A stretch of 64,000 nucleotides of DNA from Vulcanimicrobiota bacterium (GTDB lineage Bacteria; Vulcanimicrobiota; Xenobia; Xenobiales; JADMJV01). Within the stretch, counting starts at the first letter, position 1; each line of letters starts with the position of its first letter. Under the pieces are notes generated by a model, which was given only the letters and a program-made list of their open reading frames with translations, was not told the DNA's origin and made no database searches. The stretch spans positions 2,436,891 to 2,500,890 of the forward strand of contig JBFWNU010000001.1 in NCBI GenBank assembly GCA_050250895.1, in the 5' to 3' direction. The position numbers were made by a program, and so were the translations under genes. This document shows, piece after piece, positions 21,195 through 57,800 of the stretch.

Positions 21195-22057
21195 AGCTGC
21201 CCTATCCCCCTCGGCGCCAGGATCCGATTTATCCTTACTTTCCCCCTCGCCCGTCGTCGGGACGGTTCGCCGGCATGGCTCCCGATGGGCGTCTGCCCGA
21301 GCTTCATCTTTACGACGGCTCGCGCTGCAACCGCAGCTGCGGCTTCTGCGTGGTGGCCGGCAGCCCCCGAGGCTGGCATCGGCCCTACTGCCGCGAGACC
21401 CTCGATTTCGCCCTGGAGCTGGTCACCCCCGGCGGCTTGCTCAAGTTCTACGGAGGCGAGCCCACCCTGCACCCCGACAATCTGCTCGAGGCCGTCGTCT
21501 ATCTGCGTCAGGGAGGATTCGAGGGCTCTTTTCGCATCTATACCAATGGGGTGCGCGCCCGCCACTTGATCGCGATTTTGGAGGCCGTGCCCGAGATGGA
21601 TGCCGTGCTCAACTACTCCATCCTGCATGGTCGAGGCGTGCCTCCTATACCCGAGCCGGCCATGCAGCGGCTCTATGAGTATCCGGCCGGACGCATCTTC
21701 TCGGGCCATGCCGATCTGGTCGAGGTGGGCAACCCCGAGGCGCTACCGGGCGGGGTGGGCGACTTTGGCGGCGGGTGCGCCCAGTGCCATCCGGTCCTGC
21801 GGACTGACCAGCGCTTGCACGGCTGCCCTTTTGCCGTCGAGATCGAGGCTCCGGTCTTCGAACTAGGCCGTCCGGGGGATGCCACTACCATGGTGATCGA
21901 GCGCTATCGGCGGCTGCTGCGCTGGCAGGTCGAAGTGCTCGAGCCTGAGGCAAAGCGGCGGGGCTTGCATCCTTGCCAGGTCTGCGATCGCCATCTCGAC
22001 CAACTGCCTGGGAGGCAGGGGGGGCCACCGGCGACCACAAAAGGCCTCCCTCGATGA
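21191..22057 (+). CDS. Radical SAM protein with Cys-rich C-terminus
   Basis: CNRSCGFC, GGEPTL, YTNG; CAQC..GCPF..CQVC. Confidence 0.85.
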   Translation: MKLPYPPRRQDPIYPYFPPRPSSGRFAGMAPDGRLPELHLYDGSRCNRSCGFCVVAGSPRGWHRPYCRETLDFALELVTPGGLLKFYGGEPTLHPDNLLEAVVYLRQGGFEGSFRIYTNGVRARHLIAILEAVPEMDAVLNYSILHGRGVPPIPEPAMQRLYEYPAGRIFSGHADLVEVGNPEALPGGVGDFGGGCAQCHPVLRTDQRLHGCPFAVEIEAPVFELGRPGDATTMVIERYRRLLRWQVEVLEPEAKRRGLHPCQVCDRHLDQLPGRQGGPPATTKGLPR

Positions 22058-23430
22058 CCACCTCCCCGCGCACCCTCATCGACGAGGCAGAACGCCGTGA
22101 AGGGCTGGTCGAGGAGCTGCTCGAGTTGGCCGAAGAGCAGCAACTCGAGCAGGTGGTTACCCGTTTGCGCACGCTGCACCCGGCCGATCAGGCCGAGATC
22201 CTCGAAGAGTTCTCGAGCGAGGTCAGCTACCGGCTGCTCAAAGACTATCCCGACGAAGAGATCGCCGAGATCCTCGAGTTTCTTTCTGAGAACGCTCGGA
22301 CCGGCTTTGTCAGCCACCTCGACCCGGCCGTGACGGCCCGCATCCTGGTTTTTGTCGACGACGATCTGGCCGCCGACCTGGTCGAAGAGTTGCCCGACGA
22401 GCAGGTCGAGGCCCTCCTGAACATGCTCGATGACCCCACCGGCATCAAAGAACTGCTGGAACTGCCCGAAGAATCGGCCGGTCGCTGGATGTCGCCGGAT
22501 GTCATCGCTCTGCAAGAAGACTGGACGGTGCAGCAGGCCTTCGAGCATCTGCGCAAGGAGTCGCCCGACGCCGACCAGCCCTTCTATCTCTACACCGTCG
22601 ACCGCGAGGGTCGCCTGATGGGGGTGGTCGACCTGCGCCGGTTGATCACCGCTCCGCCCGATGCTCCTTTGATGAGCATCACCATCAAGGAGGTGCTCAG
22701 CGTGCCCGTCGAGATGGACCAGGAAGCTGCGGCTGAACGGCTTCGCTATTATGACTTGCTGGCCTTGCCGGTGGTCAATAACGAAGGCCACCTGATGGGT
22801 GTGTTGACGGCCGACGACGTGCTCGACGTGCAGGTCGAAGAGGCCACCGAGGATATCTATCTGCAGGTGGGTCTCGACGCCGAATCCTCGGCTTTGAGCA
22901 CGGTGGGCCGAACCCTACGAAGGCGGGCCCCCTGGCTTTTGATCAACCTGCTGATCGGCTTCTTCTCGGCCCTCATCGTCAGTTCGTTCGAAGGCACCAT
23001 CTCGAAAGTGGCCGCCCTGGCGGCCTTCATGCCGATTATCGCCGGCCACGGGGGCAATACCGGCTGCCAGACCACCACCCTGGTGGTGCGCGGTCTGGCC
23101 CTGGGCGAAATCTACAAGCGTGACGTGAGTCGCCTGGTGGCCAAAGAGCTGGGCTTTGGCATCATTTATGGCCTGCTGGCCGGGGTGCTGACGGGCGGGC
23201 TGGCCTTTATCCTCACGCACAATCATTGGCTGGCGGGAGTGGTATTTTTTGCCATGGTGGGCAATATCGTGGTGGCGGGATTGGCGGGCTCGCTCATTCC
23301 GCTGGGCCTGCGCGCCCTCAAGATCGACCCGGCCCTGGCCTCGACGGTCTGGCTGACGACCTTTACCGACTGGGTGGGATTCTTTCTGTTGCTGGGCCTG
23401 GGCACGTATTTGATAGGCCATTTGACCTGA
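22054..23430 (+). CDS. mgtE: Magnesium transporter MgtE
   Basis: LHPAD N-domain, CBS pair, GGNTGCQT, IDPALAS, TTFTD. Confidence 0.93.
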   Translation: MTTSPRTLIDEAERREGLVEELLELAEEQQLEQVVTRLRTLHPADQAEILEEFSSEVSYRLLKDYPDEEIAEILEFLSENARTGFVSHLDPAVTARILVFVDDDLAADLVEELPDEQVEALLNMLDDPTGIKELLELPEESAGRWMSPDVIALQEDWTVQQAFEHLRKESPDADQPFYLYTVDREGRLMGVVDLRRLITAPPDAPLMSITIKEVLSVPVEMDQEAAAERLRYYDLLALPVVNNEGHLMGVLTADDVLDVQVEEATEDIYLQVGLDAESSALSTVGRTLRRRAPWLLINLLIGFFSALIVSSFEGTISKVAALAAFMPIIAGHGGNTGCQTTTLVVRGLALGEIYKRDVSRLVAKELGFGIIYGLLAGVLTGGLAFILTHNHWLAGVVFFAMVGNIVVAGLAGSLIPLGLRALKIDPALASTVWLTTFTDWVGFFLLLGLGTYLIGHLT

Positions 23431-29114: not shown

Positions 29115-29150
29115 GGGAGGGTTTGGCGGCCGCCTTTGGAAGTGTTGGCG

Positions 29151-31523
29151 ATGCCCAGCAGCCGTCGGTCCGGTGACTTTCGTTTCGGCACCAAGGCCGC
29201 GACCCTCGAGCGCCTGCGTCCTCTGGTCGACTTCATGCGGATTGCCCCGCTGGTGGCCTTCAGCCTGCAAGAGTGGAGGTCGGATTCGCAAGCCTGTCTG
29301 GGGCGGGTCGCCGGGTTGGGACCGGTCTCGCTGGTGGTGCGCAGTTCGGCCATCGGCGAAGATAGCCACGAGCAATCCATGGCGGGTGCCTATCTGTCGC
29401 TGCTCGATATCGACGGCGCCAGTCCGGATCGGGTAAGGGAGGCCATCGAGCAAGTCTTTGCGTCCTACCGAGGCAACCCCCTCGACCAGGTGCTGGTGCA
29501 GCCGATGGTCAGCCCGGTCTTGGTCAGCGGCGTGATCACCACCTTTTCGGTCGACGACGGAGCCCCCTATCTGGTCATCAACTACGATGACGATAGCGGG
29601 CGCACCGACCGCATCACCGGAGGCAAAGGGGCCCACAAGAGCGTGTGGGTCTATCGCAAAGCGGGTCGTAAAGCCTTCGAGTCCGAGCGGGTCGCTCGCT
29701 GGGTGCGCCTGTCGCTTCGCCTCGAGCGCCTCTGCGGCGACAAGCCGCTAGACATCGAGTTTGGCGAGACCCCCGACGGAGAATTCCATCTGTTTCAAGT
29801 GCGGCCGCTGGCCACCGCGGGCCGCTGGTCCAGCCCGGTGACCCTGGCCGCTTCTCGCTGCCAGCCCGAACTGGTGCAAGCGGTGCGGCGCCTCTCGCAG
29901 CGGCTGCCGGGCGTGCTGGGTCGGACCACCATCTGGGGCGCCATGGCCGACTGGAACCCGGCCGAGATGATCGGACCCTTGCCCCGGCCACTGGCCGCCT
30001 CGCTTTATCGCCACCTGATTACCGACTCGACCTGGAGACTGGCCCGCGCCCGCATGGGGTATCGCCACCCCGGCGGTCAGCCGCTGATGGTGTTGCTGGC
30101 CGGTCGGCCCTTCATCGACATCCGAGCCAGCTTCAATTCGTTTCTGCCCGCAACGCTCGGGGCCGGACCGGGTTTTCGCCTGGTCGAGGCCTGGCTGGAC
30201 AGGCTGGCCCATCATCCCGAGTTCCACGACAAAGTCGAGTTTGAAGTGGCCCTCACGTGCCGCGATTTCAAGTTCGCCCAGACCGTCGAAGAGCGCTATC
30301 CCGGGGTTTTGTCGCCCCAAGAACTGGGGCTTTGGGAACACGGCTTGACCGACCTCACTCGCCAGGCACTGGCGGCCGGGGGCACCCTGGAGCAAGCCCT
30401 GCGGCTGGTGCGGGCTCGGCGGCCGGCACTTCGACCGTCGTTAGGTCCCCTCCAGGCCGCCTGGTGTCTGTTCGAGCGCTGTCGGCGTAGCGGCACGTTG
30501 CCCTTCGCCATCGTGGCCCGCCACGCATTCATCGCCGAGGCCCTGTTGCGCTCGGCCGTGCAACGGGGCGCTCTCGAGCCCGAGCGCCTGTCGTTGTTCC
30601 GCCAGTCGGTCCCCACCGTGGCTCGCCAGTTCACCACTCAGCTGCGCGAGGTCAGCCTGGGCCAGAGGCCGGCGGAGGCTTTCTTCGCCGAATTTGGCCA
30701 TCTGCGCCCCGGCACCTACGAGATCATGTCGCGCCGCTACGACCAGAGCGAAGACCTTTTCCAGGGAGGCCTGGACACTCTGGCCCCGGCCCCTCATCAG
30801 GTTTTCGAGCTGCAACCCACCGAAGAGAAGAGCCTGGCCCTCTTGCTGGCCGAGGCCAGGCTCGACACCACTCCGGCCCGACTGCTGGACTACGCGGCCC
30901 AGGCCATCGCCGGTCGCGAAGAAGCCAAGTTTCTTTTCACCCGCGACCTGTCCGATGGGCTCGAGCAACTGGCCCGCTGGGGTCAAACCCGCCAGCTTAC
31001 GCGCGAGCAGGTTTCTTATCTCGAGGTGGCGGATATCCTGGATGAGCGCTTTGCTCCCCACCTGCAAGACCCGTCTGGCTATTGGAGCGAGCGCAGCCAG
31101 CTCGGCCTGGAGAAGATGCGGCTGCACCGCTGTGTGCACCTGTCTTATCTCCTGCGCAGCTGGCGCGATGTGCTGGTGGCTCCGGCCCATCGGGCCGTGC
31201 CCAACTTCATCACCGACCAGCGGGTCGAAGCCGAGGGGGTGGCGCTGGATGCGGCTACCTCGGGTACGGCCATCCCCGACCTGTTCGGACGACTGGCCCT
31301 GATCGAACAGGCCGATCCCGGCTTTGACTGGGTCTTCACTCGCGGCATCGCCGGGCTCGTCACCCAGTATGGCGGACCCAACTCGCACATGGCCGTTCGC
31401 TGCGCCGAGTTGAGCCTGCCGGCCGCCATCGGCTGTGGCGAGAATCTCTTCGGCCGCCTGCGCCGGGCCCGCAGGATCGAGTTGAATTGCCTCGAGCGGG
31501 TGGTTCGACCCGTGCTCGAATAG
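29151..31523 (+). CDS. PEP-utilising/ATP-grasp enzyme, L-glutamine kinase (Cj1418)-like
   Basis: FGTKA, VRSSA..ED..SMAG, DWNPAEMIG, HDKVEF, GHLRPGTY, ADPGFDW, GGPNSHMAVRCAE phospho-His domain. Confidence 0.8.
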   Translation: MPSSRRSGDFRFGTKAATLERLRPLVDFMRIAPLVAFSLQEWRSDSQACLGRVAGLGPVSLVVRSSAIGEDSHEQSMAGAYLSLLDIDGASPDRVREAIEQVFASYRGNPLDQVLVQPMVSPVLVSGVITTFSVDDGAPYLVINYDDDSGRTDRITGGKGAHKSVWVYRKAGRKAFESERVARWVRLSLRLERLCGDKPLDIEFGETPDGEFHLFQVRPLATAGRWSSPVTLAASRCQPELVQAVRRLSQRLPGVLGRTTIWGAMADWNPAEMIGPLPRPLAASLYRHLITDSTWRLARARMGYRHPGGQPLMVLLAGRPFIDIRASFNSFLPATLGAGPGFRLVEAWLDRLAHHPEFHDKVEFEVALTCRDFKFAQTVEERYPGVLSPQELGLWEHGLTDLTRQALAAGGTLEQALRLVRARRPALRPSLGPLQAAWCLFERCRRSGTLPFAIVARHAFIAEALLRSAVQRGALEPERLSLFRQSVPTVARQFTTQLREVSLGQRPAEAFFAEFGHLRPGTYEIMSRRYDQSEDLFQGGLDTLAPAPHQVFELQPTEEKSLALLLAEARLDTTPARLLDYAAQAIAGREEAKFLFTRDLSDGLEQLARWGQTRQLTREQVSYLEVADILDERFAPHLQDPSGYWSERSQLGLEKMRLHRCVHLSYLLRSWRDVLVAPAHRAVPNFITDQRVEAEGVALDAATSGTAIPDLFGRLALIEQADPGFDWVFTRGIAGLVTQYGGPNSHMAVRCAELSLPAAIGCGENLFGRLRRARRIELNCLERVVRPVLE

Positions 31524-31569
31524 CCAGGCCAGGAGAGATCGCCCTGACCTCGAACCCCACGAACTGCAC

Positions 31570-32262
31570 ATGGTCGACGTCTCCGTCTGCATGGCGGCAT
31601 ACAACGAAGAGGACAACATCCTGGAGGCCGTCGAGGAGATGGTGGCTACCATGGACTCGTTCTCGGGCAGCTACGAGATCGTCATCATCGACGACGGTAG
31701 CACCGACAACACTCCCGCCCTGGCCGACCAGCTGGCCCACCGTTTCGCCCACGTGCGCGTCATCCACCACCCCACCAACCTGGGTCTGGGCGGCTATTAC
31801 CGCACCGCTTTTGCCGAGTCGCGAGGGTGGGCCACGACCTTCTTTCCCACCGACGGGCAATTCCCCACCGACATCGTGCCCACGTTCTTCCAGCGGCTCC
31901 ACGAGCTGGACTTGCTCTGCAGCTATATCACCAAGGTCAACGAAGGCCCGATGCGCCAACTGGTGACCGTCTGTGAGCGGCTCATCTATCGATTGTTGTT
32001 TGGACCCCTGCCCCGCATGCAGGGCATCATGATGGTGCGCACCGAGGCCCTGCGGCAATTGACCTTTCGCTCCCAGGGGCGGGATTGGACCATTCTCTTC
32101 GAGTTGCTGGTGCTGGGCACGCGAGCCGGCTGGAGGATCGACTCGGTCCCCATCGACTATTATCCGCGCCGTTCGGGCCACTCCAAGGTGATGAACTTTC
32201 GCACCGCCCTGCTGAATTTGCTGGGCATCCTGCGACTCTGGTGGATCCTCTTGCGACCATGA
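31570..32262 (+). CDS. Glycosyltransferase family 2
   Basis: AYNEE, IIDDGSTD, NLGLG, TDGQF, R.SGHSK. Confidence 0.88.
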   Translation: MVDVSVCMAAYNEEDNILEAVEEMVATMDSFSGSYEIVIIDDGSTDNTPALADQLAHRFAHVRVIHHPTNLGLGGYYRTAFAESRGWATTFFPTDGQFPTDIVPTFFQRLHELDLLCSYITKVNEGPMRQLVTVCERLIYRLLFGPLPRMQGIMMVRTEALRQLTFRSQGRDWTILFELLVLGTRAGWRIDSVPIDYYPRRSGHSKVMNFRTALLNLLGILRLWWILLRP

Positions 32263-32277
32263 CGAGGATCCGCTGAC

Positions 32278-32787
32278 ATGGTCTTCTGGATCACCGGCCT
32301 GTCGGGCGCCGGCAAATCGACCCTGGCCCGAGCCTGGTGCGCCTTCCTGCGAGAGCATCACGACTGTCTGCCGGTCTTGCTCGACGGTGACGAGATCCGG
32401 GCGGTGGTGGCCGACCCGGCCGCCGGCCACGACCGCCCTGGCCGGCTGCGCAACGCTTTTCGCCTGGCCCGCCTGGCCCATCTGTTAGAGAGCCAGGGCC
32501 ACACGGTGGTGGTGGCCACCATGTCGCTTTTTCACGAGATCCACGACTGGAATCGCCGCGAACTCAAGGGCTATCTCGAAGTGCTCCTCCAGGTAAGCCC
32601 CGAAGTGCTGGCCCGCCGCCACCAGCAAAACCTCTATGACGGCAGCCACTCGAACGTGGTCGGGGTGGACCTTCCCGCCGAAGAGCCCAAAGAGCCGCAC
32701 CTGGTTCTCGACAATAACCCCGAGCGCGAAGACCTGGCCCCTTTGCTCGCTCAAATTCAAGCGGCCTGGCAGGTGATGACCCCATGA
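32278..32787 (+). CDS. Adenylylsulfate kinase-like nucleotide 3'-kinase (Cj1415-like)
   Basis: WITGLSGAGKST P-loop, LDGDEIR, VVGVD...EEP. Confidence 0.85.
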   Translation: MVFWITGLSGAGKSTLARAWCAFLREHHDCLPVLLDGDEIRAVVADPAAGHDRPGRLRNAFRLARLAHLLESQGHTVVVATMSLFHEIHDWNRRELKGYLEVLLQVSPEVLARRHQQNLYDGSHSNVVGVDLPAEEPKEPHLVLDNNPEREDLAPLLAQIQAAWQVMTP

Positions 32788-33884
32788 AGCCCATCTTTCT
32801 CAACGCCATGTCGCGCAACGGGCACTCGCTGCTCTACCAGTTGCTGGCCGACCACCCCCAGCTGTCCTTTCTGCCCGGGCGCATCCACTTTGCCTGCCGA
32901 GAGCCCCGGGGCTTTCCACTGACTGGGCCGGTGACCGATCTGGTCGAGCAGCTGCTGGCCCGTCACACGGTCGACATCGGCGAGCAGTACCAAGACTACC
33001 AGTCGATTCCTATTACCGACTTCGCTCGCTTTCCCCAGGCTGAATTCCGCCGACGGGCTCGAGCCTCGGGCGACCTCAAAGAGCAGTTCCACGCCTATCT
33101 GCGGGCTCTCTTCGAGGTCTTTGAGCAGACCCCGCGAGAGTATACCCTGATCCAGGATGACCACATGTACGCCCTGGGCCTCGAGATGGTGTTGCCTGTT
33201 TTTCCTGAAGCGCGCTTTCTGCAGCCCATTCGCTCGGGCTTTGACGTGGTGGCCTCGAAAAAGAACCTGATGCTGTTTCATCTGGGCCACCGGGGCGACT
33301 CCCGGTCGATGGAACTCACCGAGGATGCCCTCGAATCGGAATGGACCCGCTGGCTGTGGAGCCTGGTGGTAGCCAGCCTCTGCCTGGCCCAGAGCCCGGC
33401 CGATCGCTATGTGGTCTGCGGTTTCGAGGCCTTGCGCGGTTCGGCCCGCGAAACGGCCATGCGCGAGCTTTGCCAGCTGTGGGAACTGGATTGGCACCCG
33501 GTGCTGCTGGAAGAGACCAGTTCGGCCTGCGCCCCCGAACACGGCTTTTCGACCCTGATGCTGGTGGTGCCCACCCTGAAGTTGTTAGGCTCGGCCAGGC
33601 CAACCTCGCCGGTGAAGTCCTACCAGCGCAGCCTGACCGAGACCGAACAAGATACCCTGGCCCGTCTGGCGGAGCCCTTTCAGCTGCCCGACCTGGGCGA
33701 CACTCCGCTGCAGGCGCGCCAGGCGCTGCTCGACTTCTGGTCGGCAAACCAGGTGGCCCTGCGGGCCCATCCCCGCCTGGGCCAGTGGTTGCTGTGGTAT
33801 GAGCAGGGCCAGCCGGTCCGGGCCTTTGATGACTACAGCGCCTGGAACTATGGGCGCGCCCAGGCGACCAGGGCCTTTCGATGA
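32784..33884 (+). CDS. Sulfotransferase-fold protein
   Basis: PIFLNAMSRNGHSLLYQLLADHPQL (5'-PSB-like) and IRSGFDVVAS (3'-PB-like). Confidence 0.7.
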   Translation: MKPIFLNAMSRNGHSLLYQLLADHPQLSFLPGRIHFACREPRGFPLTGPVTDLVEQLLARHTVDIGEQYQDYQSIPITDFARFPQAEFRRRARASGDLKEQFHAYLRALFEVFEQTPREYTLIQDDHMYALGLEMVLPVFPEARFLQPIRSGFDVVASKKNLMLFHLGHRGDSRSMELTEDALESEWTRWLWSLVVASLCLAQSPADRYVVCGFEALRGSARETAMRELCQLWELDWHPVLLEETSSACAPEHGFSTLMLVVPTLKLLGSARPTSPVKSYQRSLTETEQDTLARLAEPFQLPDLGDTPLQARQALLDFWSANQVALRAHPRLGQWLLWYEQGQPVRAFDDYSAWNYGRAQATRAFR

Positions 33885-36713: not shown

Positions 36714-39700
36714 TTGTCCGAGAAAAGGAGCCAGCTAGAGCTCCCCGGCAGTCCGCCGACGCTTATGCATTTCGAAGGGAGCTTTCGCTTGGCTACCGGT
36801 ATTCAGACCCGCATGCGGTCGGTCAACCGCCGCACGTCTACGGGTTTACGCCAGTCTATTCTCTCGGTTCTCGACACCAGGGCATCGTCCCACGACTTTG
36901 GAGATGCCTGCCTGCTGATGCTCGGAATCGGGCTTTTCGGAACCCTCTACAACCACCTTCCGCCCTTCGCCCACTTGCTGGGAGCCGGCCATTTCTTCCA
37001 GCTCTCGGGCGCCGACCGCTCGACCGTTCTGGTCGATCACCTGCACGATCCGGCCTCGATCAGCGGGCTCGAACGCGTCTTTAGCGAATTGACCGGACAT
37101 CCGGTTCAAGTAGCCAGCCAGGCCGGCCCCTTTTGGTGGCAGTTCCTGCTTTTGACTTTCAGTATCCTGATGGTCTATCGCGCTGGTGCCTGGCTGATGC
37201 GCCACCCCGCCAGTTGGGAGAATCCCCCGCCCCAGCTGGCGGCCCGGGTAGGCGCCGGCCTGCTGGCCCTGGGCGTGGGGACCCTGTTGACGCCCCAACT
37301 GGGTCTGCTCTGCTGGCTGCTGTTCGGCCTGGGCTGCCTGGCCCTCTTTGCCGATTTAGGATTAGGCTCCAAGACCCACAGCCGCCTCTTTGGTGGTCTG
37401 GCCTTATTACGGCTCAGCCTGTGGGGCGCCGTCTTCCAGGTGGGGTGGGACGGACCCCACTGGGTGACCCCAGCCGCCCTGACGGTGGGGGGGCTGATGT
37501 TGTGGCTGACGCGAGCCACGGGCCAGAGCCCCATTCACCGCTGGGTGCAGGTCGAACTGTACGGGCTGGTCTGGCTGTGGGTGGCTCAGGGACCTCACGA
37601 GGGACCTCTGCTGGTCTTCCTCAGTGGAGTTGCCTTTCTGGGCCTGTCAGCCCTGTTGCGTCGTCGTCGCCTGGGGGTGACCACGAAAGTGGGCTGCCTG
37701 TTGCGTTCCTTGAGCCGGATCGCCTCCCTGGTGGGTGTGGCCTGTCTGCCCGCGGCCGCCTGGGGATATCACCACGGACTCTTGCCGCATCCCCTGTGGG
37801 GGGCACTGCCGCTGCTCTTGTTGATGGTGTCCGGCAGCCCCTGGCGAGCCACCGGACTGCGCCAGCGAAAGGTTGCCCTGCCCGATTCCCTGACAGGCTC
37901 GCAGGCGGCGGCCGTTTGCCTGATGAGCTTGCCGCCCGAGGTTTCGGCGGACCTCTTTCGCAGGATGGGTCCCGAGTTGGTGTATCAGGTCACCATCGAG
38001 ATTTCGAAGCTACCGCAGATTTGCCCGCGGCTGCGCCATCAGGTCGTGGAGTGCGTCTTCGGTTGTGACGGCCTCGACGCTCTTGAGCGCCTGGCGACCA
38101 AACACCCTGATCTTGCCACCGATAGGCTGGTGGACCTGGTGACCGATTCGGGCAGGGTTGGCTCCCAGCCTGGTTTGGGTCCGGTCAAGCAGAAACACCT
38201 GCTGCTCGGCCTCGGCTTGGTGCTGGCCCTGATCGCTCAAGGTGGCTGGAACGAGCCGTCTTTCGGCGGGCCAGAAGCCCGGGCTATGGTAGGCTACCGG
38301 GCGCGCGTGCTGGCCAGCGACCACTACCTGGTGGTGACCGGTGTTGGGCTGACCAGTCAGCAGTGGGACGATCTCACCCGCACGCTGCCTCGCCAACCGG
38401 GTCAACTGTTGCTCAGCGTGCCGCTCGAGCAGGGAGCGGCCGAACAGGTGGGTTGGGCCGTGCTGATTCTGGGCTTGCTCTACACGCTCTGCCAGTGGTT
38501 TCATCCGCAGCCCGAGGTGGCTGGCAGCCGGGTGGCCGCCTGCTTGCTGGGTGGCTTTGGGCTCTGTGCCCTGACGGGGATCTTCTGGTTGCCGCCAGCG
38601 CCATTTTTGCTCGCAGGCCTGGCCGCGCTGGGGGTGGCCGCCACCACGCCCCAAGCCGTACCATCGGCACCCCCGGTTCGCTCTGTGCGGGTCACCTTGC
38701 TCAACGAACCCGCCCCTCCCGAGCCAGCTCCGCTTCCCGAGCCAAAGCCGGTCAAGGTCGCACGAGCAGCTGACCTCTTGCATGTCGACGAAGTGACGGT
38801 CGAGGTTGGCCGAGGCCTGCTGTCGCTGGTTGACCCCAAAGAAGGGGCCCGACTGCTCGAGCGCGTCCGGTCGATTCGGGCAACCCTGGCCCAGGAGTTG
38901 GGCATTGTCGTGCCCGGTGTGCGCTTCCGCGACGATCTGCTCTTGCCGGCCAAGAACATGCGCCTGTCATTGTTTGGTCAAGAAGTGGGCCAGATCCAGT
39001 TAGAGCTTGATCTCTTGTTGGCGATCTTACCGTTGCATGTGCCGGACCTCGAGGGACTGCCAACCACTGACCCTTTGTTCGGCCTCGACGCCCTGTGGAT
39101 CGAGCGAGATCGGCAGGGAATGGCCGAACGGTTGGGCGTTCCGACTCAGGACGCCGTTTCGGTGGCGGGCACCTATCTCATCGAGTCGATCCGGGCCAGA
39201 GCGGACCGACTGTTGACGCTGGATATGGTCGAGGCACTCCTTACCGAGCTGGCCAAGACCGACCCGGTGGTGGTCACCATGGCCAGGCTGCGCCTGGATG
39301 TGCTGGAGCTGCAGCAGATTTTGCGCGGGCTGCTAGCCGAGCGTGTCTCGATTCGACCGCTGGCCCTGATCCTCGACCAGCTATTGCAGATGCCCGAGGG
39401 GCTGCTGGTGGAAGCGGCCGTGGCTCGCCTGCGGGTGGCCCTGGCCAGCCAGATCACGGTCTCGCTGGCCGTGGCCGGCAAGCTGCGGCTGTTGGACCTG
39501 ACCGGTCTGGTGGTGGACGAGCAGCTGCTGGGACAGATCCGTGAACAGTTCCATCAGCTCGAGTTGCGGGGCTTGCTGGTCGATCCCGAGGATCGTCTGC
39601 GGGTCCGCCAGGCTCTGGGAGACATCCCGGTGCTGGCCAGCAATGAACTGGTGGCCTCGCTGGTGGAGATCGATCTGGTCAGCGCCGACCAGCTGGAGGG

Positions 39701-39719
39701 CTTCGAGCTAGAAGACTAG
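36714..39719 (+). CDS. Multi-TM protein with FliG-N-like domain and FlhA (FHIPEP) cytoplasmic domain; start uncertain
   Basis: LTGSQAAAVCLMSLPPEVSADLFR..EISKL; VEVGRGLLSLVD, RATLAQELGIVVPGVRFRD, GLLAERVSIR, IPVLASNEL. Confidence 0.75.
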   Translation: MSEKRSQLELPGSPPTLMHFEGSFRLATGIQTRMRSVNRRTSTGLRQSILSVLDTRASSHDFGDACLLMLGIGLFGTLYNHLPPFAHLLGAGHFFQLSGADRSTVLVDHLHDPASISGLERVFSELTGHPVQVASQAGPFWWQFLLLTFSILMVYRAGAWLMRHPASWENPPPQLAARVGAGLLALGVGTLLTPQLGLLCWLLFGLGCLALFADLGLGSKTHSRLFGGLALLRLSLWGAVFQVGWDGPHWVTPAALTVGGLMLWLTRATGQSPIHRWVQVELYGLVWLWVAQGPHEGPLLVFLSGVAFLGLSALLRRRRLGVTTKVGCLLRSLSRIASLVGVACLPAAAWGYHHGLLPHPLWGALPLLLLMVSGSPWRATGLRQRKVALPDSLTGSQAAAVCLMSLPPEVSADLFRRMGPELVYQVTIEISKLPQICPRLRHQVVECVFGCDGLDALERLATKHPDLATDRLVDLVTDSGRVGSQPGLGPVKQKHLLLGLGLVLALIAQGGWNEPSFGGPEARAMVGYRARVLASDHYLVVTGVGLTSQQWDDLTRTLPRQPGQLLLSVPLEQGAAEQVGWAVLILGLLYTLCQWFHPQPEVAGSRVAACLLGGFGLCALTGIFWLPPAPFLLAGLAALGVAATTPQAVPSAPPVRSVRVTLLNEPAPPEPAPLPEPKPVKVARAADLLHVDEVTVEVGRGLLSLVDPKEGARLLERVRSIRATLAQELGIVVPGVRFRDDLLLPAKNMRLSLFGQEVGQIQLELDLLLAILPLHVPDLEGLPTTDPLFGLDALWIERDRQGMAERLGVPTQDAVSVAGTYLIESIRARADRLLTLDMVEALLTELAKTDPVVVTMARLRLDVLELQQILRGLLAERVSIRPLALILDQLLQMPEGLLVEAAVARLRVALASQITVSLAVAGKLRLLDLTGLVVDEQLLGQIREQFHQLELRGLLVDPEDRLRVRQALGDIPVLASNELVASLVEIDLVSADQLEGFELED

Positions 39720-40609: not shown

Positions 40610-41008
40610 CTATTCCAACGAGAAGCTGGCTTCGACGTCTTCGAGGCCGATGCTCAGCAACTCGACTTCGCCGCGGGTCGAGATGGTATAGCTCGCTCCG
40701 TCGGCTTTGATGGCATAAGTCTTGGTGGCCGGAGCACGGGCTGGCCAGCCACCCAGCAGAGCGGCGCCAATCAGGGCGGCGGCTGCCACCGTCTTCCACG
40801 GTCGGGGCGAGGGTCCCGTCGCAAAGTGCCGGGTCGGCAACGGCTCGACCTCTGGCAACTGCAGGGCCTGTTCGAGCGCTCCCAGGCTGCCCAGATAGCG
40901 GCGGCAAGTCAGGCAAGAGCCCAGATGTCCGCGCACCTCTTCGGCCTGCTCGCTCGCCAGCTGGCCATCGTGATAAAGGCTGACCCTGTGGCTATGCTCG
41001 CAGCTCAT
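40610..41008 (-). CDS. Zinc-finger (zf-HC2) anti-sigma factor
   Basis: YHDGQL...HLGSCLTC plus TM helix. Confidence 0.85.
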   Translation of the reverse strand: MSCEHSHRVSLYHDGQLASEQAEEVRGHLGSCLTCRRYLGSLGALEQALQLPEVEPLPTRHFATGPSPRPWKTVAAAALIGAALLGGWPARAPATKTYAIKADGASYTISTRGEVELLSIGLEDVEASFSLE

Positions 41009-41487
41009 GTTTGTTCCTCCAAGAGCCGGCAGGCCCGCTGGCGGGCCCGATGCAGCATGACCCCGATGCTGTTGGGAGTGGTCGAAAAGATGGCGGCCAG
41101 CTGTTGGTAGTCAAGGCCGGCGTACTCCTTGAGCAAAAGCAAGGCTCGCTCGCGCGGCGGCAAAGCCTTCAGCACCCGAAAGCCGGTCTCACGCTCGACC
41201 AGCTCGTCGTCGAAGGTGGTTACCAGCGGACGGCCGCATAACTTTTCCCACATCTTGCGCCAGCCGCCGGCCCGGCGCAGATGGTCGATACAGGCGTTGC
41301 GGGCCACTCCGAAGAGCCAGGCCACGTCCACCGGGCCAGTCCTCTGGATGGCCCGCACAAAGACCTCTTGAGCCAGGTCCTGAGCGGCTTCGCGCTGGCC
41401 GACCATGCGAAAACAGAAGTTCTCCAGCTTGGCACGGTGGCTGGCGAAAAGCTCCTCGACAGGCGTGATCGTCGGTTGGGGCATCAT
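41005..41487 (-). CDS. ECF RNA polymerase sigma factor
   Basis: AQDLAQEVF, WLFGVARNACIDHLR, LPPRER, LHRAR. Confidence 0.9.
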   Translation of the reverse strand: MMPQPTITPVEELFASHRAKLENFCFRMVGQREAAQDLAQEVFVRAIQRTGPVDVAWLFGVARNACIDHLRRAGGWRKMWEKLCGRPLVTTFDDELVERETGFRVLKALPPRERALLLLKEYAGLDYQQLAAIFSTTPNSIGVMLHRARQRACRLLEEQT

Positions 41488-54411: not shown

Positions 54412-54888
54412 TCAGAGAGTCAGAGCCACCCAGGGGTCCACCACCTGGCCCCGGAGCTCGGCGTAGCTGCCTTCGAATTGGCGACTTACCCTCACCGCAC
54501 GGGCGTGGGGAAGGTCTTCTTCGCCAGCATTGAGGGTGATCAGATCCACCAGCTCGGGTGCGAAACGGGTCAGGGCTACCGTCGCCGTCTTGCCTTTGCC
54601 GACCGTAAAAAGCACCCATCCGTTCTGAGTGTTGCCTTCAAAGTAAGCCTCGACCCGCATGCCACCAAATTCGACCGCCAGAGCGCCCTCGCCCGGCATC
54701 AGGTCTCGGTCGCTCTCGTCGAGAGCCTGGAGTTGCTCGAACTGTTCGCAAACTTGCTCGAGCGTCTCGCGGGCCTGCTCGCCGGTGAGCGCCTGGCTCT
54801 CGTCTTTCTCGGTCAGGTGCCCGTTGTCGAAGAAATCCTCGACCGTCGAGCGACACCAGGCAGGCAGAAACTCAAGGGGTTGCTTCAC
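54412..54888 (-). CDS. Hypothetical protein
   Basis: 158-aa ORF overlapping the TPR gene stop. Confidence 0.65.
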   Translation of the reverse strand: MKQPLEFLPAWCRSTVEDFFDNGHLTEKDESQALTGEQARETLEQVCEQFEQLQALDESDRDLMPGEGALAVEFGGMRVEAYFEGNTQNGWVLFTVGKGKTATVALTRFAPELVDLITLNAGEEDLPHARAVRVSRQFEGSYAELRGQVVDPWVALTL

Positions 54889-57800
54889 GAGATCTCCTGG
54901 TTGAGAAAGGCCTCGTCGGGTGTCTCTCCGGCCTCGGCTTTGGTTTTGGCTTCTTGCAGCCAGGTCTTGGCAGCGTCGCTCAGGTTGGCAGCCGCCAGCC
55001 CCTTCTTGGCGGCTGCGGCGGCCTCGTCGTTTTCACCGGCTTCAGCCAGAACCTTGACTTTGGCCACGTGGGCCGGCGCGTAGTCGGCATCGAGCCCCAG
55101 GGCGTTGTCGAAGGCCTTGGTCGCTTCTTGAGTCTTCTTCAGGCGGCCGTAAGCCGTTCCCAGGTCGACATAGACCTCGGCCTGAGGGTCGCCCTGCAGC
55201 AACTTTCTGAACTGGACCACCGCCAGGGTGTCCTTGCCGACGTGACAGTAGGCTCGAGCCAGATGCAAAAGATAGCCCGGCTCCTCGCCATTCTTCTTCT
55301 GCAAGTCGCGATAGAAGTCGATCAGTTTGCGAGCGTTGCCGGCGTCGCCGATCAAGGCGTAGATACCCCGATGAGCCGCTTTGTCGTGGGGATTCTCGTT
55401 GAGCTTGTCCCGGTAGAAATCGAGGGCCTCGTCGGGATCGCTGGGGGCATCGGCGTAAGACTCGGCCGAGGCGGCCGGAGCAGCTTTAGCCGGAGGCTCG
55501 GCGGCAGGGGCCTCTTCGGTCACAGGTTCTTCCACGGCAGGCTCTTCAGCCGCCGGCTCGGGCTCGGGCTCGGGCTCAGGCTCAGGCTCGGGAGCGGTCT
55601 CGGCTGTAGCCTCTTCGTGGCCCGGCTCGAGTTCGAGGACCTTTTCGAAGTGGGCCCTGGCCTGGTCGGCTTCGCCAGCCTCTTTGGCCTGGCGTGCGGC
55701 CACCAGATGAACGCGCACCTGATCGTCTTTAAGAGAAAGCTCGCCAAACAGGGCGATGGCCTCGTCCAGTTTGCCTTCCTTTTCGAGTTCTTCCGCTTCG
55801 GCTTTGCGTAGCGCGGGAATCTCGGCTTGGGCTTTCTCGTTCTCGGGATCGCGGACCAGTAATTTCTCCCATACTTCGCGGGCCGCCACGGCTCCGCCGG
55901 CCGCAAGCGCCGACTGAGCCCAACTGCTAAAGGTCTCGCCCGCCTGGGTCTTGGCCTCGGGGTGATCGGCCTGCTCGCCCAACAGCCGATCGTAGGTGGC
56001 GACAGCTTCTTCGAACTGCTCGTCAGACCTCTGTTTCTCGGCCCAGGCCAGCAATACGGCCGCCCGTGTGGGAGCCAGTTCGGCATGCTCGGGCTCGGCT
56101 TCGGCGACCTGATCGAGGGTGGCCAGAGCTTGTTCGAACTCCCCCGCCTCTTTCTGTTCGCCGGCCGTCTTGAGCAGCGGCCCCACCTTGTCGGACAAGC
56201 CTTCGGCTGCCGCCGGGTCAAGCTCGGCCAACTTGGCCACAAGGGCCTGGGCGGCCTCCCCGCGGCCGTCAGCCTCGAGGGACTGAATCCAGGCCTGATA
56301 GAGCCGGATCCGGTCACCTTTGCTCTCGTCCGTCTCACCCAGCACTCCGATGGCCTTTTCATACTCGCCTTCGGCCTCGAGGGACTGAGCCCAGTTGGAG
56401 CGCAAGGCGGCCAATCGCTCGTCGACCACGGCCGCGTCGGGAGCCTCTTCGCGCAGCTTCTCATAAAGCTCGATGGCAGCTTCGAACTCGCCTTCGGCCT
56501 CTTTAGCCTTGGCCTCACCCGCCGATAGATCGAAGAGGCGGGATTTTGCCTCGGCGTGGTCGGATTGCTCGGACAGTAATTGGGCCACCACGCCCTTGGC
56601 GGCGTCGACATGGCCATCGTCTTCCAGCAGCTTGGCCCACTCGAGGTGCAGTCGAGCCAACTCCTCAGCAGGAGCGCCACCCGGCGTCTTGCGCAGATTC
56701 TCGATGGCTCCCTCGAATTCGCCCTCGGCCTCGAGCTGCTTGGCCCAGGCCAGATAGATTCGCCCCAGTTCTTGCTGGGCGTCCTCGGAGTCAGCGTTTT
56801 TCTCGAGAAAACCGTTCCAGACCTCGGCGGCCGCGCCGAATTCGCCTTCGGCCACGCGGGACTTCGCCCATTCGCGATGCAACCGCAATAGTTGTTCGGC
56901 CGCCACCTCGTTGTCGGGCAGTTCGCTCTGCAGGCTCTGATAGGCAGCCACGGCTTGTTCCCATTCGCCGGTTGCTTCGCTTTGCTCCGACCAGGCTGCG
57001 TAGAGGCGAGCCAGTTCCTCTTTGGCCTTGTCGGCCTGCTCGCCCTCGAGCTGAGGGCGCCACAGGGCCAGGGCCTGTTCGAACTCGCCTTCGGCCTCGA
57101 GCTGCTCGGCTTGTTCGGCCAGACTCGGTCCTTCCTCGACGGGGGCTTCCTCGGCCTGCTCCTCGGCGGGGGCTTCCTCGGCCTGCTCCTCGGCGGGGGC
57201 TTCCTCGGCTTGCTCGTCGGCGGGGGCTTCCTCGGCTTGCTCGTCGGCGGGGGCTTCCTCGGCTTGCTCGTCGGCGGGGGCTTCCTCGGCTTGCTCCTCG
57301 GCGGGGGCTTCTTCGGCCTGCTCCTCGGCGGGGGCTTCCTCGGCTTGCTCCTCGGCGGGAGCTTCCTCGGCGGGAGCTTCCTCGGCCTGCTCCTCGGCGG
57401 GGGCTTCCTCGGCCTGCTCCTCGGCGGGGGCTTCCTCGGCTTGCTCCTCGGCGGGGGCTTCCTCGGCTTGCTCCTCGGCGGGGGCTTCCTCGGCCTGCTC
57501 CTCGGCGGGGGCTTCCTCGGCCTGCTCTTCGGCGGCGGGTGCTACTTCGGCCTCGGCGGCAGGGCCGGCCAGGGCTTCTTGGAGCGCGGCCGACCGCTGG
57601 GCAGCCTCGGCGTTGCCGGGGTCAAGCGCGAGCACGGCCTGATAGGTGGCCAGCGCCTCTTCGGGCTGGTTGTTCTGCTCGTGAGCCCTGGCCAGGGCGG
57701 CAAACCCGGCTGCCGACGGCTCGAGTTCGGTGGCCTTGCTCAACCAGTTGACCGCCTCGGCCCAGTTCTCTTCGCGAACGTAAGTCTCGCCGATCTTGAG

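Follow-up and report, generated by a model that had tools for sequence, protein, structure and literature searches.

The 64,000-nucleotide stretch of DNA analysed here (the window), from a member of the Vulcanimicrobiota (Eremiobacterota), contains a forward-strand ORF at 36714-39719 whose product is a genuine inner-membrane protein, about 976 aa long and with 14 predicted transmembrane (TM) helices. The gene is intact and conserved, and it is assembled from copies of pieces of the host's own FliF, FliG, and FlhA; sequence comparison points to the lineage's own type-A flagellar genes as the source of these modules. The features of the locus are listed below, with residue numbers counted along the 1001-codon ORF.

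36714..39719, forward strand: longest ORF, uninterrupted, 1001 codons plus stop
36774..36781, forward strand: putative Shine-Dalgarno-like sequence GAAGGGAG, read from the sequence, 7 nt 5' of the TTG at 36789
36789..39719, forward strand: probable coding sequence, 976 aa, TTG read as M, start shared with P0002 and P0003
36789..36824, forward strand: N-terminal peptide MATGIQTRMRSV, repeating the order's conserved FliF N-terminal motif
36903..37832, forward strand: ten predicted TM helices (residues 64-373; hydropathy and AF2 helices), without known family
37890..38069, forward strand: FliG N-terminal ARM-type domain, helices 1-4 (residues 393-452; Pfam FliG_N, AF2, structural matches)
38070..38147, forward strand: helices 5-6, a FliF C-tail-like pair at the family level by hhalign (residues 453-478), in cis after FliG_N, includes LERLATKHPDLA
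38193..38252, forward strand: predicted TM11 (residues 494-513)
38253..38444, forward strand: 64-residue segment conserved in orthologues, predicted periplasmic (residues 514-577)
38445..38501, forward strand: predicted TM12 (residues 578-596)
38523..38648, forward strand: TM13-14 (residues 604-645), homologous to FlhA TM7-8 (FHIPEP match, own FlhA)
38649..38765, forward strand: Pro-rich linker (residues 646-684), counterpart of the FlhA linker
38766..39716, forward strand: FlhA cytoplasmic domain with four subdomains (residues 685-1001; PDB 3mix, VIA)

Translation probably starts at the TTG at 36789, where the database copy of the protein (P0002) begins; the orthologue P0003 begins at the same residue. 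No sigma-70-like promoter was found upstream of the ORF, and the DNA upstream of it showed no similarity to that upstream of two fliF genes. The GC3 of the ORF (0.77) is similar to that of the genes around it.

The start codon carries the lineage-specific FliF N-peptide MATGIQTGM, with 9 of 11 residues identical. This peptide opens 22/31 FliF-locus ORFs among those listed, and the only long ORFs of the host genome with it at the start codon are two FliF paralogues and the ORF described here. A search of the genome with the FlhF profile retrieved nothing above the family cut-off, leaving the FliF N-peptide without a known reader. The FliF-type motif had escaped the initial annotation of this DNA.

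The ten-helix domain that follows was assigned to no family by Pfam and NCBIfam scans, and an Atlas search with it gave no usable match. A whole-library phmmer search with residues 1-290 found relatives only in P0002 and P0004; the sole relative of the domain beyond the orthologues is P0064 (residues 26-475, 26% identity, E 5e-15). AF2 confidence over this domain is about 50, and for this reason we make no claim as to its fold. A split (Rosetta-stone) version of the protein was also sought through P0064, the N-half homologue in genome G009, and no FlhA-C gene was found among the surrounding ORFs scanned.

The FliG_N module is matched by Pfam FliG_N (PF14842) at residues 393-446 (32.6 bits versus a cut-off of 25, E 1.3e-7) and shares 55% identity with the FliG of its own genome (phmmer E 5.7e-19). 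The AF2 pLDDT exceeds 90 for helices 1-4 and is 86.8 for the whole module, and the best 10 of 11 structural matches with Z of at least 2 are FliG domains (Z 4.8-7.5). With the full-length FliG model TIGR00207 the score is 19 bits (cut-off 226.7). By profile, the FliG middle and C-terminal domains, which carry FliM binding and the torque helix, are absent, the sole FliG_M match being below cut-off and overlapping the FliG_N stretch.

The two helices after FliG_N resemble the FliF C-terminal FliG-binding tail at the level of family profiles. When the module family was compared with a FliF C-tail profile by hhalign, residues 452-480 matched at 89% (E 2.1e-6), versus 2.7% (E 0.017) for canonical FliG as a control. 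The initial annotation had proposed a FliF-C-terminus-like motif on the basis of LERLATKHPDLA (residues 457-468), and its proposal finds support in the family profile but not in the single sequence, which yields E >100 genome-wide and <1.1 bits with a FliF-tail HMM. That HMM, built from 16 distinct tails and run on 58,562 ORFs at E <=100, recovered the three FliFs of the genome and not this ORF. The segment is without FliF's invariant Trp, and helices 5-6 are the least conserved segment of the protein (62% and 42% identity in the orthologues). FliF and FliG normally co-fold this domain in trans. If the family-level resemblance is taken at face value, FliG_N and the FliF-C-like pair would complete the co-folded domain within one chain, and the groove of FliG_N may be occupied in cis, which would speak against simple docking onto a FliF tail. 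A complex prediction for the FliG_N module (alignment A3) with the C-terminal 60 residues of the orphan FliF described below gave scores of 0.02 and 0.01 (mark 0.32) and speaks neither for nor against such docking.

Beyond this module, the predicted periplasmic segment between TM11 and TM12 shares 97% and 73% identity with its counterparts in the two orthologues and is also present in L036:84-2318; its AF2 pLDDT is <50. From residue 607 onward, the ORF shares 42% identity with the FlhA of its own genome. The predicted topology places ten and then four helices between cytoplasmic modules, and this even number would leave all flagellar-derived modules on the cytoplasmic side. In the linker, the position of Salmonella W354 is Ala; the lineage's canonical FlhA likewise has no linker Trp. 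In Salmonella, the linker Trp serves ring remodelling.

Pfam FHIPEP (PF00771) matches residues 610-945 (E 7e-49) at profile positions 259-587 of 657; since the match begins at position 259, only the last two TM helices of FlhA, its linker, and its C-domain are present; of the eight-helix FlhA membrane domain, TM1-6 are missing, and with them the conserved cytoplasmic FHIPEP loop. The ORF scores 173.6 bits with TIGR01398 (FlhA), against an equivalog cut-off of 772.1. The FlhA-C part matches PDB 3mix (E 7e-38), and VIA gave an FlhA-C fold with Z 30.6 and an rmsd of 2.8 over 312 residues aligned to 3myd. Residues I771, D786, F789, and L791 align to Salmonella FlhA I440, D456, F459, and L461, which excerpts of PMC5932034 describe as chaperone-substrate cleft residues, and all four are kept. 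The counterpart of Salmonella R391, a residue named in a preprint abstract, is R722, nearly invariant across alignment A1. According to the same excerpts of PMC5932034, conservation of the FlhA ring interface is poor. In the FlhA-C tree, the branch leading to the domain is long, at 1.21 changes per site, and falls within an unresolved group that also holds type-A FlhA and other chimeras, and its subdomain D1 is near the lineage's type-A FlhA.

The list of modules given in the initial annotation is correct. Its multi-TM N-region without FlhA TM motifs has no FlhA match by Pfam or TIGR01398; its FliG N-terminal-like segment lies where it was placed, at nt 37890-38069, above the Pfam cut-off, so that the doubt raised there over the significance of the FliG similarity falls away; and both families proposed for a Pfam check, FliG_N and FHIPEP, were found in the ORF. 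The further TM helices after FliG_N and the Pro-rich linker were recovered too, the final two helices being FlhA TM7-8, and the FlhA cytoplasmic domain is complete in all four subdomains.

The orthologue P0003, from another assembly, is 89% identical over its full length, and P0004, from a further assembly, is 67% identical over residues 69-729. Every segment is conserved in both, at 42-97% identity across segments, a pattern that indicates purifying conservation of each segment as judged from protein sequences only. A search for orthologue DNA in metagenome and genome contigs found no relative. The presence of the fusion in P0003 and P0004 also settles the worry, voiced in the initial annotation, that it might be restricted to one assembly or decaying. 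In G001, a 98% complete genome of the same genus, no orthologue turned up, which makes the gene dispensable.

FliG_N and FHIPEP occur together in 6/12 ORFs scanned from sister genera of Vulcanimicrobiota and in 9/32 database proteins scanned. The sister-genus versions have no adjacent flagellar gene; the genes conserved next to them encode an AI-2E transporter, a 505-aa protein without assignment, and an FHA-cyclase. DUF4139/4140 proteins also carry FliG_N-like modules as insertions, and a fusion of such a module with a PLP enzyme occurs as well. A literature search for FlhA-C-only paralogues or a FliG_N-FlhA fusion found none at the abstract level, and such proteins may be in print elsewhere.

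As the initial annotation had stated, no flagellar genes are nearby: none of the 56 other ORFs scanned in the window belongs to a flagellar family. The count of paralogues and canonical genes that it had called for gave 2 flhA, 2 fliG, 3 fliF, 2 fliP, and 2 full flhB genes, together with 8 extra FlhA-C paralogues, none of them within a flagellar cluster, for a total of ten FlhA-C-bearing ORFs against two gate sets. The type-A flagellar cluster lies at G000:C1, 1.459-1.475 Mb, and fliS at G000:C1:574674-575003. The heads fused to FlhA-C differ within the genome and include HTH (HTH_3) and FlhB-C; several of the other paralogues are without the chaperone-cleft residues. The third FliF paralogue (G000:C2:554967-556562) stands alone, with no fliG, and its N-motif and C-tail are intact. 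Such third FliF copies are common in large-genome families.

The initial annotation had offered three readings of the fusion: an alternative export gate, a sorting adaptor, or a regulator of the type III apparatus. The first is poorly supported. FlhA TM1-6 and the FHIPEP loop are missing, the 2 fliP and 2 full flhB genes match the 2 canonical flhA genes and leave no spare gate core for this ORF, and the 8 extra FlhA-C paralogues outside flagellar clusters, with gate parts for only two sets, make an independent export gate unlikely. The sorting adaptor or regulator appears the most plausible class, favoured by the intact chaperone-binding cleft residues. We lean, with somewhat less than even confidence, towards a role linked to flagellar assembly, in which the protein is an FlhA-C docking platform anchored in the membrane, or a regulator. 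In such a protein, the FlhA-C part would form a ring or join one, the retained cleft would bind flagellar chaperone-substrate complexes of the FliS-flagellin type, and the FliF- and FliG-derived parts would serve assembly or targeting close to flagellar basal bodies. The protein would then serve late flagellar export as an accessory platform that docks, buffers, or regulates, and not as a proton-driven export engine. Counting against this reading are the non-flagellar surroundings of the ORF and of its sister-genus versions, the lack of an orthologue in G001, the unlike heads fused to FlhA-C in the genome, and the lack of an FlhF above cut-off to read the FliF N-peptide. Given the long branch of its FlhA-C, its clients may have changed.

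An unlikely reading, but one that deserves serious weight, is that of a repurposed scaffold without a flagellar role, in which FlhA-C, FliG_N, and the FliF tail act as general interaction modules, e.g., in a signalling or envelope complex. The excess of FlhA-C-bearing ORFs over gate sets, heads as unlike as HTH_3 and FlhB-C, the FliG_N-like modules in DUF4139/4140 proteins and with a PLP enzyme, the non-flagellar neighbours at all loci examined, and the long FlhA-C branch are all in its favour, and the fusion of FlhA-C to very different heads is as compatible with a general-purpose module as with a flagellar one. Nevertheless, the chaperone-gripping residues lost in several other paralogues of the genome are kept here, and the modules trace back to a single set of flagellar genes, including the FliF terminal motifs, for which we know of no use outside the flagellum. 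We consider it rather improbable that the protein is a variant or "poison" subunit which, through TM7-8 and FlhA-C, enters the canonical FlhA nonamer and alters or blocks export, for example limiting flagellar number: only the ring-nearest parts of FlhA are retained (TM7-8, linker, and C-domain), D1 is close to type-A FlhA, and the tree puts the domain in one unresolved group with type-A FlhA and the other chimeras, but ten extra TM helices and the extra domains would have to fit within the MS ring.

The orphan FliF, with its intact terminal motifs and its counterparts in large-genome families, invites the thought of an alternative machine in which it forms a ring, its C-tail is bound by FliG_N, and an FlhA-C platform exports or gates something, as in the alternative export gate of the initial annotation. 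This we hold to be very improbable, as a third FliP or FlhB is absent, the ion-coupling half of FlhA is missing, and FliG_N probably has its groove occupied in cis. A speculative variant, which we also think quite doubtful, treats the flagellar basal-body parts of this Vulcanimicrobiota family as a construction kit: a single-chain, permuted FliF-C/FliG-N domain would tether an FlhA-C ring to the ten-helix domain and, with the orphan FliF, build a second, non-rotary ring complex docking chaperoned cargo apart from the flagellum. An artefact, whether a misassembled junction or a pseudogene, is barely credible; the lack of an orthologue in G001 would suit it, but the frame is open over 1001 codons with the GC3 of its neighbours, and two other assemblies carry the conserved fusion across all junctions.

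With FlhA, whose C-domains are solved (3mix, 3myd, 3a5i, 6ch1-3), the protein shares the TM7-8 hairpin, the linker, the four-subdomain C-domain, the chaperone-cleft residues, and the R391 equivalent. It differs from FlhA in its missing TM1-6 and FHIPEP loop, its location outside a flagellar operon, its approximately 600 extra N-terminal residues, and its long branch, and it does not cluster with flhB/fliPQR as canonical flagellar or injectisome FlhA does. Helices 1-4 are alike in sequence and fold to those of the FliG_N/FliF-C co-fold (5tdy, 5wuj; C-ring 8wiw, 8umd), and helices 5-6 appear to match the FliF tail at the family-profile level; unlike the two-chain co-fold, FliG_N here precedes the FliF-C-like pair in one chain that is membrane-tethered on both sides and has no FliG_M or FliG_C. 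With FliF (PF01514/PF08345), the protein shares the N-peptide MATGIQT.M.S and a TM helix after it, an arrangement found in the order's type-A FliF, and apparently, at the family-profile level, a C-tail-like motif; the periplasmic ring-building domains are absent (no FliF family at E <=1). The ORF is part of an expansion, specific to the lineage, of FlhA-C modules that lie outside flagellar operons, and differs from the soluble FlhA-C paralogues in being membrane-embedded, keeping FlhA TM7-8, and adding FliG- and FliF-derived modules. New here are the FliF-type N-peptide, the FliF-tail-like helices at the family level, and, as judged by alignment, the kept chaperone-cleft residues.

A precedent for accessory tuning of late export at the FlhA-C docking site is FlaG of Campylobacter jejuni, which, according to the abstract of PMC11536152, competes with FliS-flagellin for FlhA. 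FlaG is unrelated in sequence and acts on FlhA, whereas the protein described here contains an FlhA copy. Should that copy still be able to bind export chaperones, it would make a natural accessory to, or competitor of, the export gate and a new handle on the ordering of late flagellar export. FlhA-C, FliG_N, and FliF tails are normally confined to flagella and injectisomes, where each machine has one copy; in the present case, duplicated and recombined forms of them are kept under selection without being part of a flagellar operon. In the FliG_N-FliF-C-like module, a domain known only as a two-protein co-fold would occur naturally in "un-split" form, which would help in understanding the coupling of the MS ring to the C ring. 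We would like to note that P0004 and P0034 both carry the source name "FHIPEP family type III secretion protein", an annotation that covers very different architectures.

The longest ORF of the chimera, the membrane protein that carries FliG_N (the N-terminal domain of FliG) and FlhA-C (the cytoplasmic domain of the export-gate protein FlhA), is intact:

36714-39719, +, longest ORF of the chimera, one open frame of 1001 codons

Residue numbers count from its first codon. Residue 26 is the start both in the database copy (P0002, 976 aa) and in the orthologue P0003; it is a TTG at 36789 with GAAGGGAG upstream at a 7-nt spacer, and we take the coding sequence as 36789-39719. The GC3 of the gene (0.77) is similar to that of its neighbours. 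P0003 is 89% identical to the chimera over its full length and a second orthologue, P0004, is 67% identical over residues 69-729. Because both come from other assemblies and keep all module junctions, misassembly is excluded, and the worry that the fusion might be unique to one assembly can be set aside.

The FliG similarity suspected in the initial annotation proved significant. Pfam FliG_N matched residues 393-446 at 32.6 bits (cut-off 25, E 1.3e-7), the N-terminus of FliG from type A, one of the genome's own flagellar gene sets, is 55% identical to the segment (phmmer E 5.7e-19), and T. maritima FliG_N (5tdy_B) weakly matches residues 392-447 (E 1.2e-3). A separate structure model of residues 380-490, built on a 42-row alignment (pLDDT 86.8), retrieved 11 chains at Z 2 or more, the best 10 of which are FliG domains, led by:

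8wiw_3, Z 7.5
5wuj_B, Z 7.2
5tdy_D, Z 6.8

The FliG-domain alignments are confined to helices 1-4 (about residues 11-77 of the model), and for so small a helical domain their Z values are modest; the FliG_N assignment is based mainly on sequence. Canonical FliG_N in this order is short (about 60 residues, then a Gly/Pro-rich linker) and thus fits a four-helix unit that needs two more helices.

FliF provides the missing helices of a split FliF/FliG domain. The PDB title of 5tdy names the natural two-chain form 'cofolded FliFc:FliGn'. In the chimera, the motif picked out earlier as resembling the FliF C-terminus, LERLATKHPDLA, falls in helices 5-6. A profile built from 16 distinct FliF C-tails recovered the genome's three FliFs and not the chimera among 58,562 ORFs searched (E above 100, under 1.1 bits). 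A clear FliF tail does directly follow FliG_N in other proteins found through the chimera's FliG_N segment (P0051, 34 bits; P0056, 16; P0068, 11.8; P0062, 10.3), and phmmer places helices 5-6 in the same columns as those tails. Profile-profile comparison of the module family with FliF tails gave 89% probability (E 2.1e-6, 29 columns, chimera residues 452-480), a match owed in part to family members whose motifs are clearer, against only 2.7% (E 0.017, on its EHPQ region) for the order's canonical FliG as control. The FliF-C likeness is supported at the level of the family profile, the match of the single sequence not being significant. Helices 5-6 are also the least conserved segment of the chimera (identity of 62% with one orthologue and 42% with the other) and are without the invariant Trp; our reading is that they are a putative FliF-C-like pair that has diverged and is provided in cis.

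The other end of FliF is represented as well. From residue 26 the chimera reads MATGIQTRMRS, and MATGIQTGM begins 22 of 31 FliF-locus ORFs examined, drawn from the loci of 30 relatives and from two loci of the genome itself. At the start codon of a long ORF, the motif occurs in only three places in the 9.5-Mb genome (17 contigs):

type-A FliF
orphan third FliF
the chimera

The three use different codons at synonymous sites and have unrelated upstream DNA, so that conservation has acted on the peptide itself and a recently copied piece of DNA does not explain it. The orphan third FliF (L090:9980-11563, +; contig C2, 554967-556562) has the N-peptide MATGIHSGI and an intact C-tail. It has no adjacent fliG; its neighbours are a PAS-SpoIIE phosphatase and a ClpB-like ATPase. 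Large-genome families commonly have third FliF copies.

The FlhA cytoplasmic domain recognised initially was borne out. Pfam FHIPEP matched residues 610-945 (E 7e-49), covering profile positions 259-587 of 657 only, and the NCBIfam models scored below their cut-offs (FlhA, 173.6 bits where the equivalog cut-off is 772; FliG, 19 where it is 227), so that the chimera contains pieces of both families and belongs to neither. The last 350 residues match solved FlhA-C from B. subtilis (E 7e-38), H. pylori and Salmonella. The AF2 model, built on a 27-row family alignment, is confident at residues 390-480 (six helices) and 690-990 and poor (about 50) in the membrane parts; its C-domain covers all four FlhA-C subdomains (3myd, Z 30.6, rmsd 2.8, 312 residues), and 23 FlhA/SctV structure entries score above Z 22. 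Type-A FlhA is 42% identical, with homology beginning at residue 607, and the last two TM helices are therefore the counterpart of FlhA TM7-8. In a quick tree (40 rows, LG+G4) the branch leading to the domain is long, at 1.21 changes per site, and falls in an unresolved group that also contains the sister-genus chimeras and the clade of type-A FlhA.

Residues were mapped by alignment to Salmonella FlhA-C (Salmonella number = chain index plus 303), which sets T820 of the chimera against T490. According to PMC5932034, chaperone-substrate binding by Salmonella FlhA requires Asp456 and Leu461 and is weakened by the substitutions I440A and F459A. I440, D456, F459 and L461 correspond to I771, D786, F789 and L791, all four kept, and R391, named in a preprint, aligns to R722. 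The D-P-x-F-G-L pattern is gone from several of the remaining FlhA-C paralogues in the genome.

By hydropathy and AF2, the stretch from the N-peptide to FliG_N contains ten TM helices, and the one from the FliG_N module to FlhA-C a further four. Since both counts are even, all flagellar-derived modules can, on this predicted topology, face the cytoplasm; residues 514-577, strongly conserved at 97% and 73% identity in the two orthologues, would be periplasmic.

No close orthologue was found in 40 relatives. By their source names, relatives belong to 'Candidatus Eremiobacteraeota' and 'Vulcanimicrobiota'. Sister-genus ORFs of 760-930 aa combining TM helices, FliG_N and FlhA-C numbered 6 of 12 scanned, with an AI-2E transporter, a 505-aa protein and an FHA-cyclase downstream and no flagellar genes; FliG_N plus FHIPEP occurred in 9 of 32 database proteins scanned. 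The sister-genus protein P0064 (558 aa) combines the same N-peptide with a multi-TM region and FliG_N and aligns to residues 26-475 (26% identity, E 5e-15); an ORF of another relative (G015, L036:84-2318) aligns to residues 523-890. From these alignments it seems that two gene types specific to the lineage were fused in the chimera.

The genome holds two full flhA, eight ORFs in which FlhA-C is the sole FlhA part, two fliG and a 137-aa TM-FliG_N ORF, three fliF, two fliP, two full flhB and two FlhB-C fragments, and one fliS; no FlhF scored above the family cut-off. Relevant loci are:

contig C2, 81306-81746 (L089, L011), -, 137-aa ORF with one TM helix, a FliG_N-like domain and a FliF-C-like stretch
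contig C1, 2013805-2014944 (L086:11806-12936), -, HTH_3 DNA-binding domain fused to FlhA-C, 376 aa
contig C1, 1126937-1128250 (L088:5938-7251), -, soluble FlhB C-terminal domain (Bac_export_2 247-333) fused to FlhA-C D3-D4
L085:7221-8744, -, FlhA-C-only paralogue
L085:11830-12930, -, FlhA-C-only paralogue
L086:6333-7820, +, FlhA-C-only paralogue
L087:5612-7213, +, FlhA-C-only paralogue

The 137-aa ORF is a minimal membrane-tethered form of the FliG_N/FliF-C-like module, and the HTH_3 fusion could link transcription to something bound by FlhA-C. FlhA-C-only paralogues include two pairs, their members 4-5 kb apart and adjoining HTH genes; none of the four listed lies in a flagellar cluster. The one on contig C8 has D1 alone plus FliG-like repeats by eye.

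The chimera is a new architecture of known domains, a mosaic in the membrane that unites FliG_N with the motifs from both ends of FliF; literature searched at abstract level described neither a FliG_N-FlhA fusion nor paralogues consisting of FlhA-C only. Compared with FlhA, the chimera retains the docking half with its chaperone-cleft residues, tied to the membrane, has neither TM1-6 nor the FHIPEP loop, and carries in addition parts derived from FliF and FliG. To our knowledge, the only known roles of such parts are in building the MS-ring/C-ring junction. Because TM1-6, the FHIPEP loop and a spare FliP/FlhB set are missing, the chimera cannot by itself be an export engine, and the alternative export gate proposed at first is improbable.

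The most economical reading, held tentatively at a little short of an even chance, is that the chimera would be assembled near flagellar basal bodies and might serve late flagellar export there as an accessory platform for docking, buffering or regulation. That it is a scaffold repurposed for other clients is unlikely, if still a serious contender; the gene stands apart from flagellar genes, and the cleft residues are those of FlhA. We give less credence to a variant subunit mixing into the FlhA ring. That the chimera belongs to a separate ring machine together with the orphan FliF seems quite improbable, and artefact or decay can hardly be entertained for an open frame with conserved junctions.

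As the initial annotation had stated, no flagellar genes are nearby (0 of 56 other window ORFs scanned). Features of the window include:

21973-23430, +, ordinary MgtE magnesium transporter
29136-33884, +, same-strand run of a PEP-utilising/PPDK-like enzyme (795 aa), GT2 glycosyltransferase, APS kinase and sulfotransferase
40610-41487, -, zf-HC2 anti-sigma factor (40610-41008) and ECF sigma factor (41005-41487)
54885-60566, -, 1893-aa protein, almost wholly TPR repeats

The run at 29136-33884 may encode a pathway for a sulfated glycan or lipid. The MgtE_N domain of the magnesium transporter is distantly related to FliG domains; the transporter has no connection to the chimera. The sigma/anti-sigma pair sits immediately downstream of the chimera on the opposite strand.

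The FliG_N-like module is promiscuous in this lineage: it is inserted in DUF4140/DUF4139 proteins and, once, fused to a Cys/Met-metabolism PLP enzyme (set L031:7196-9403, +, P0024, P0057, P0058 and P0059). In the relative G008, a full-length flhA (701 aa; L028:3437-5542, +) lies outside a flagellar cluster and is flanked by a DUF1152 gene and a hybrid histidine kinase. In genus g3, ORFs of 371-378 aa with an N-terminus FliG-like by eye lie between fliF and fliG (L073:1767-2900, -; L074:1762-2874, -).
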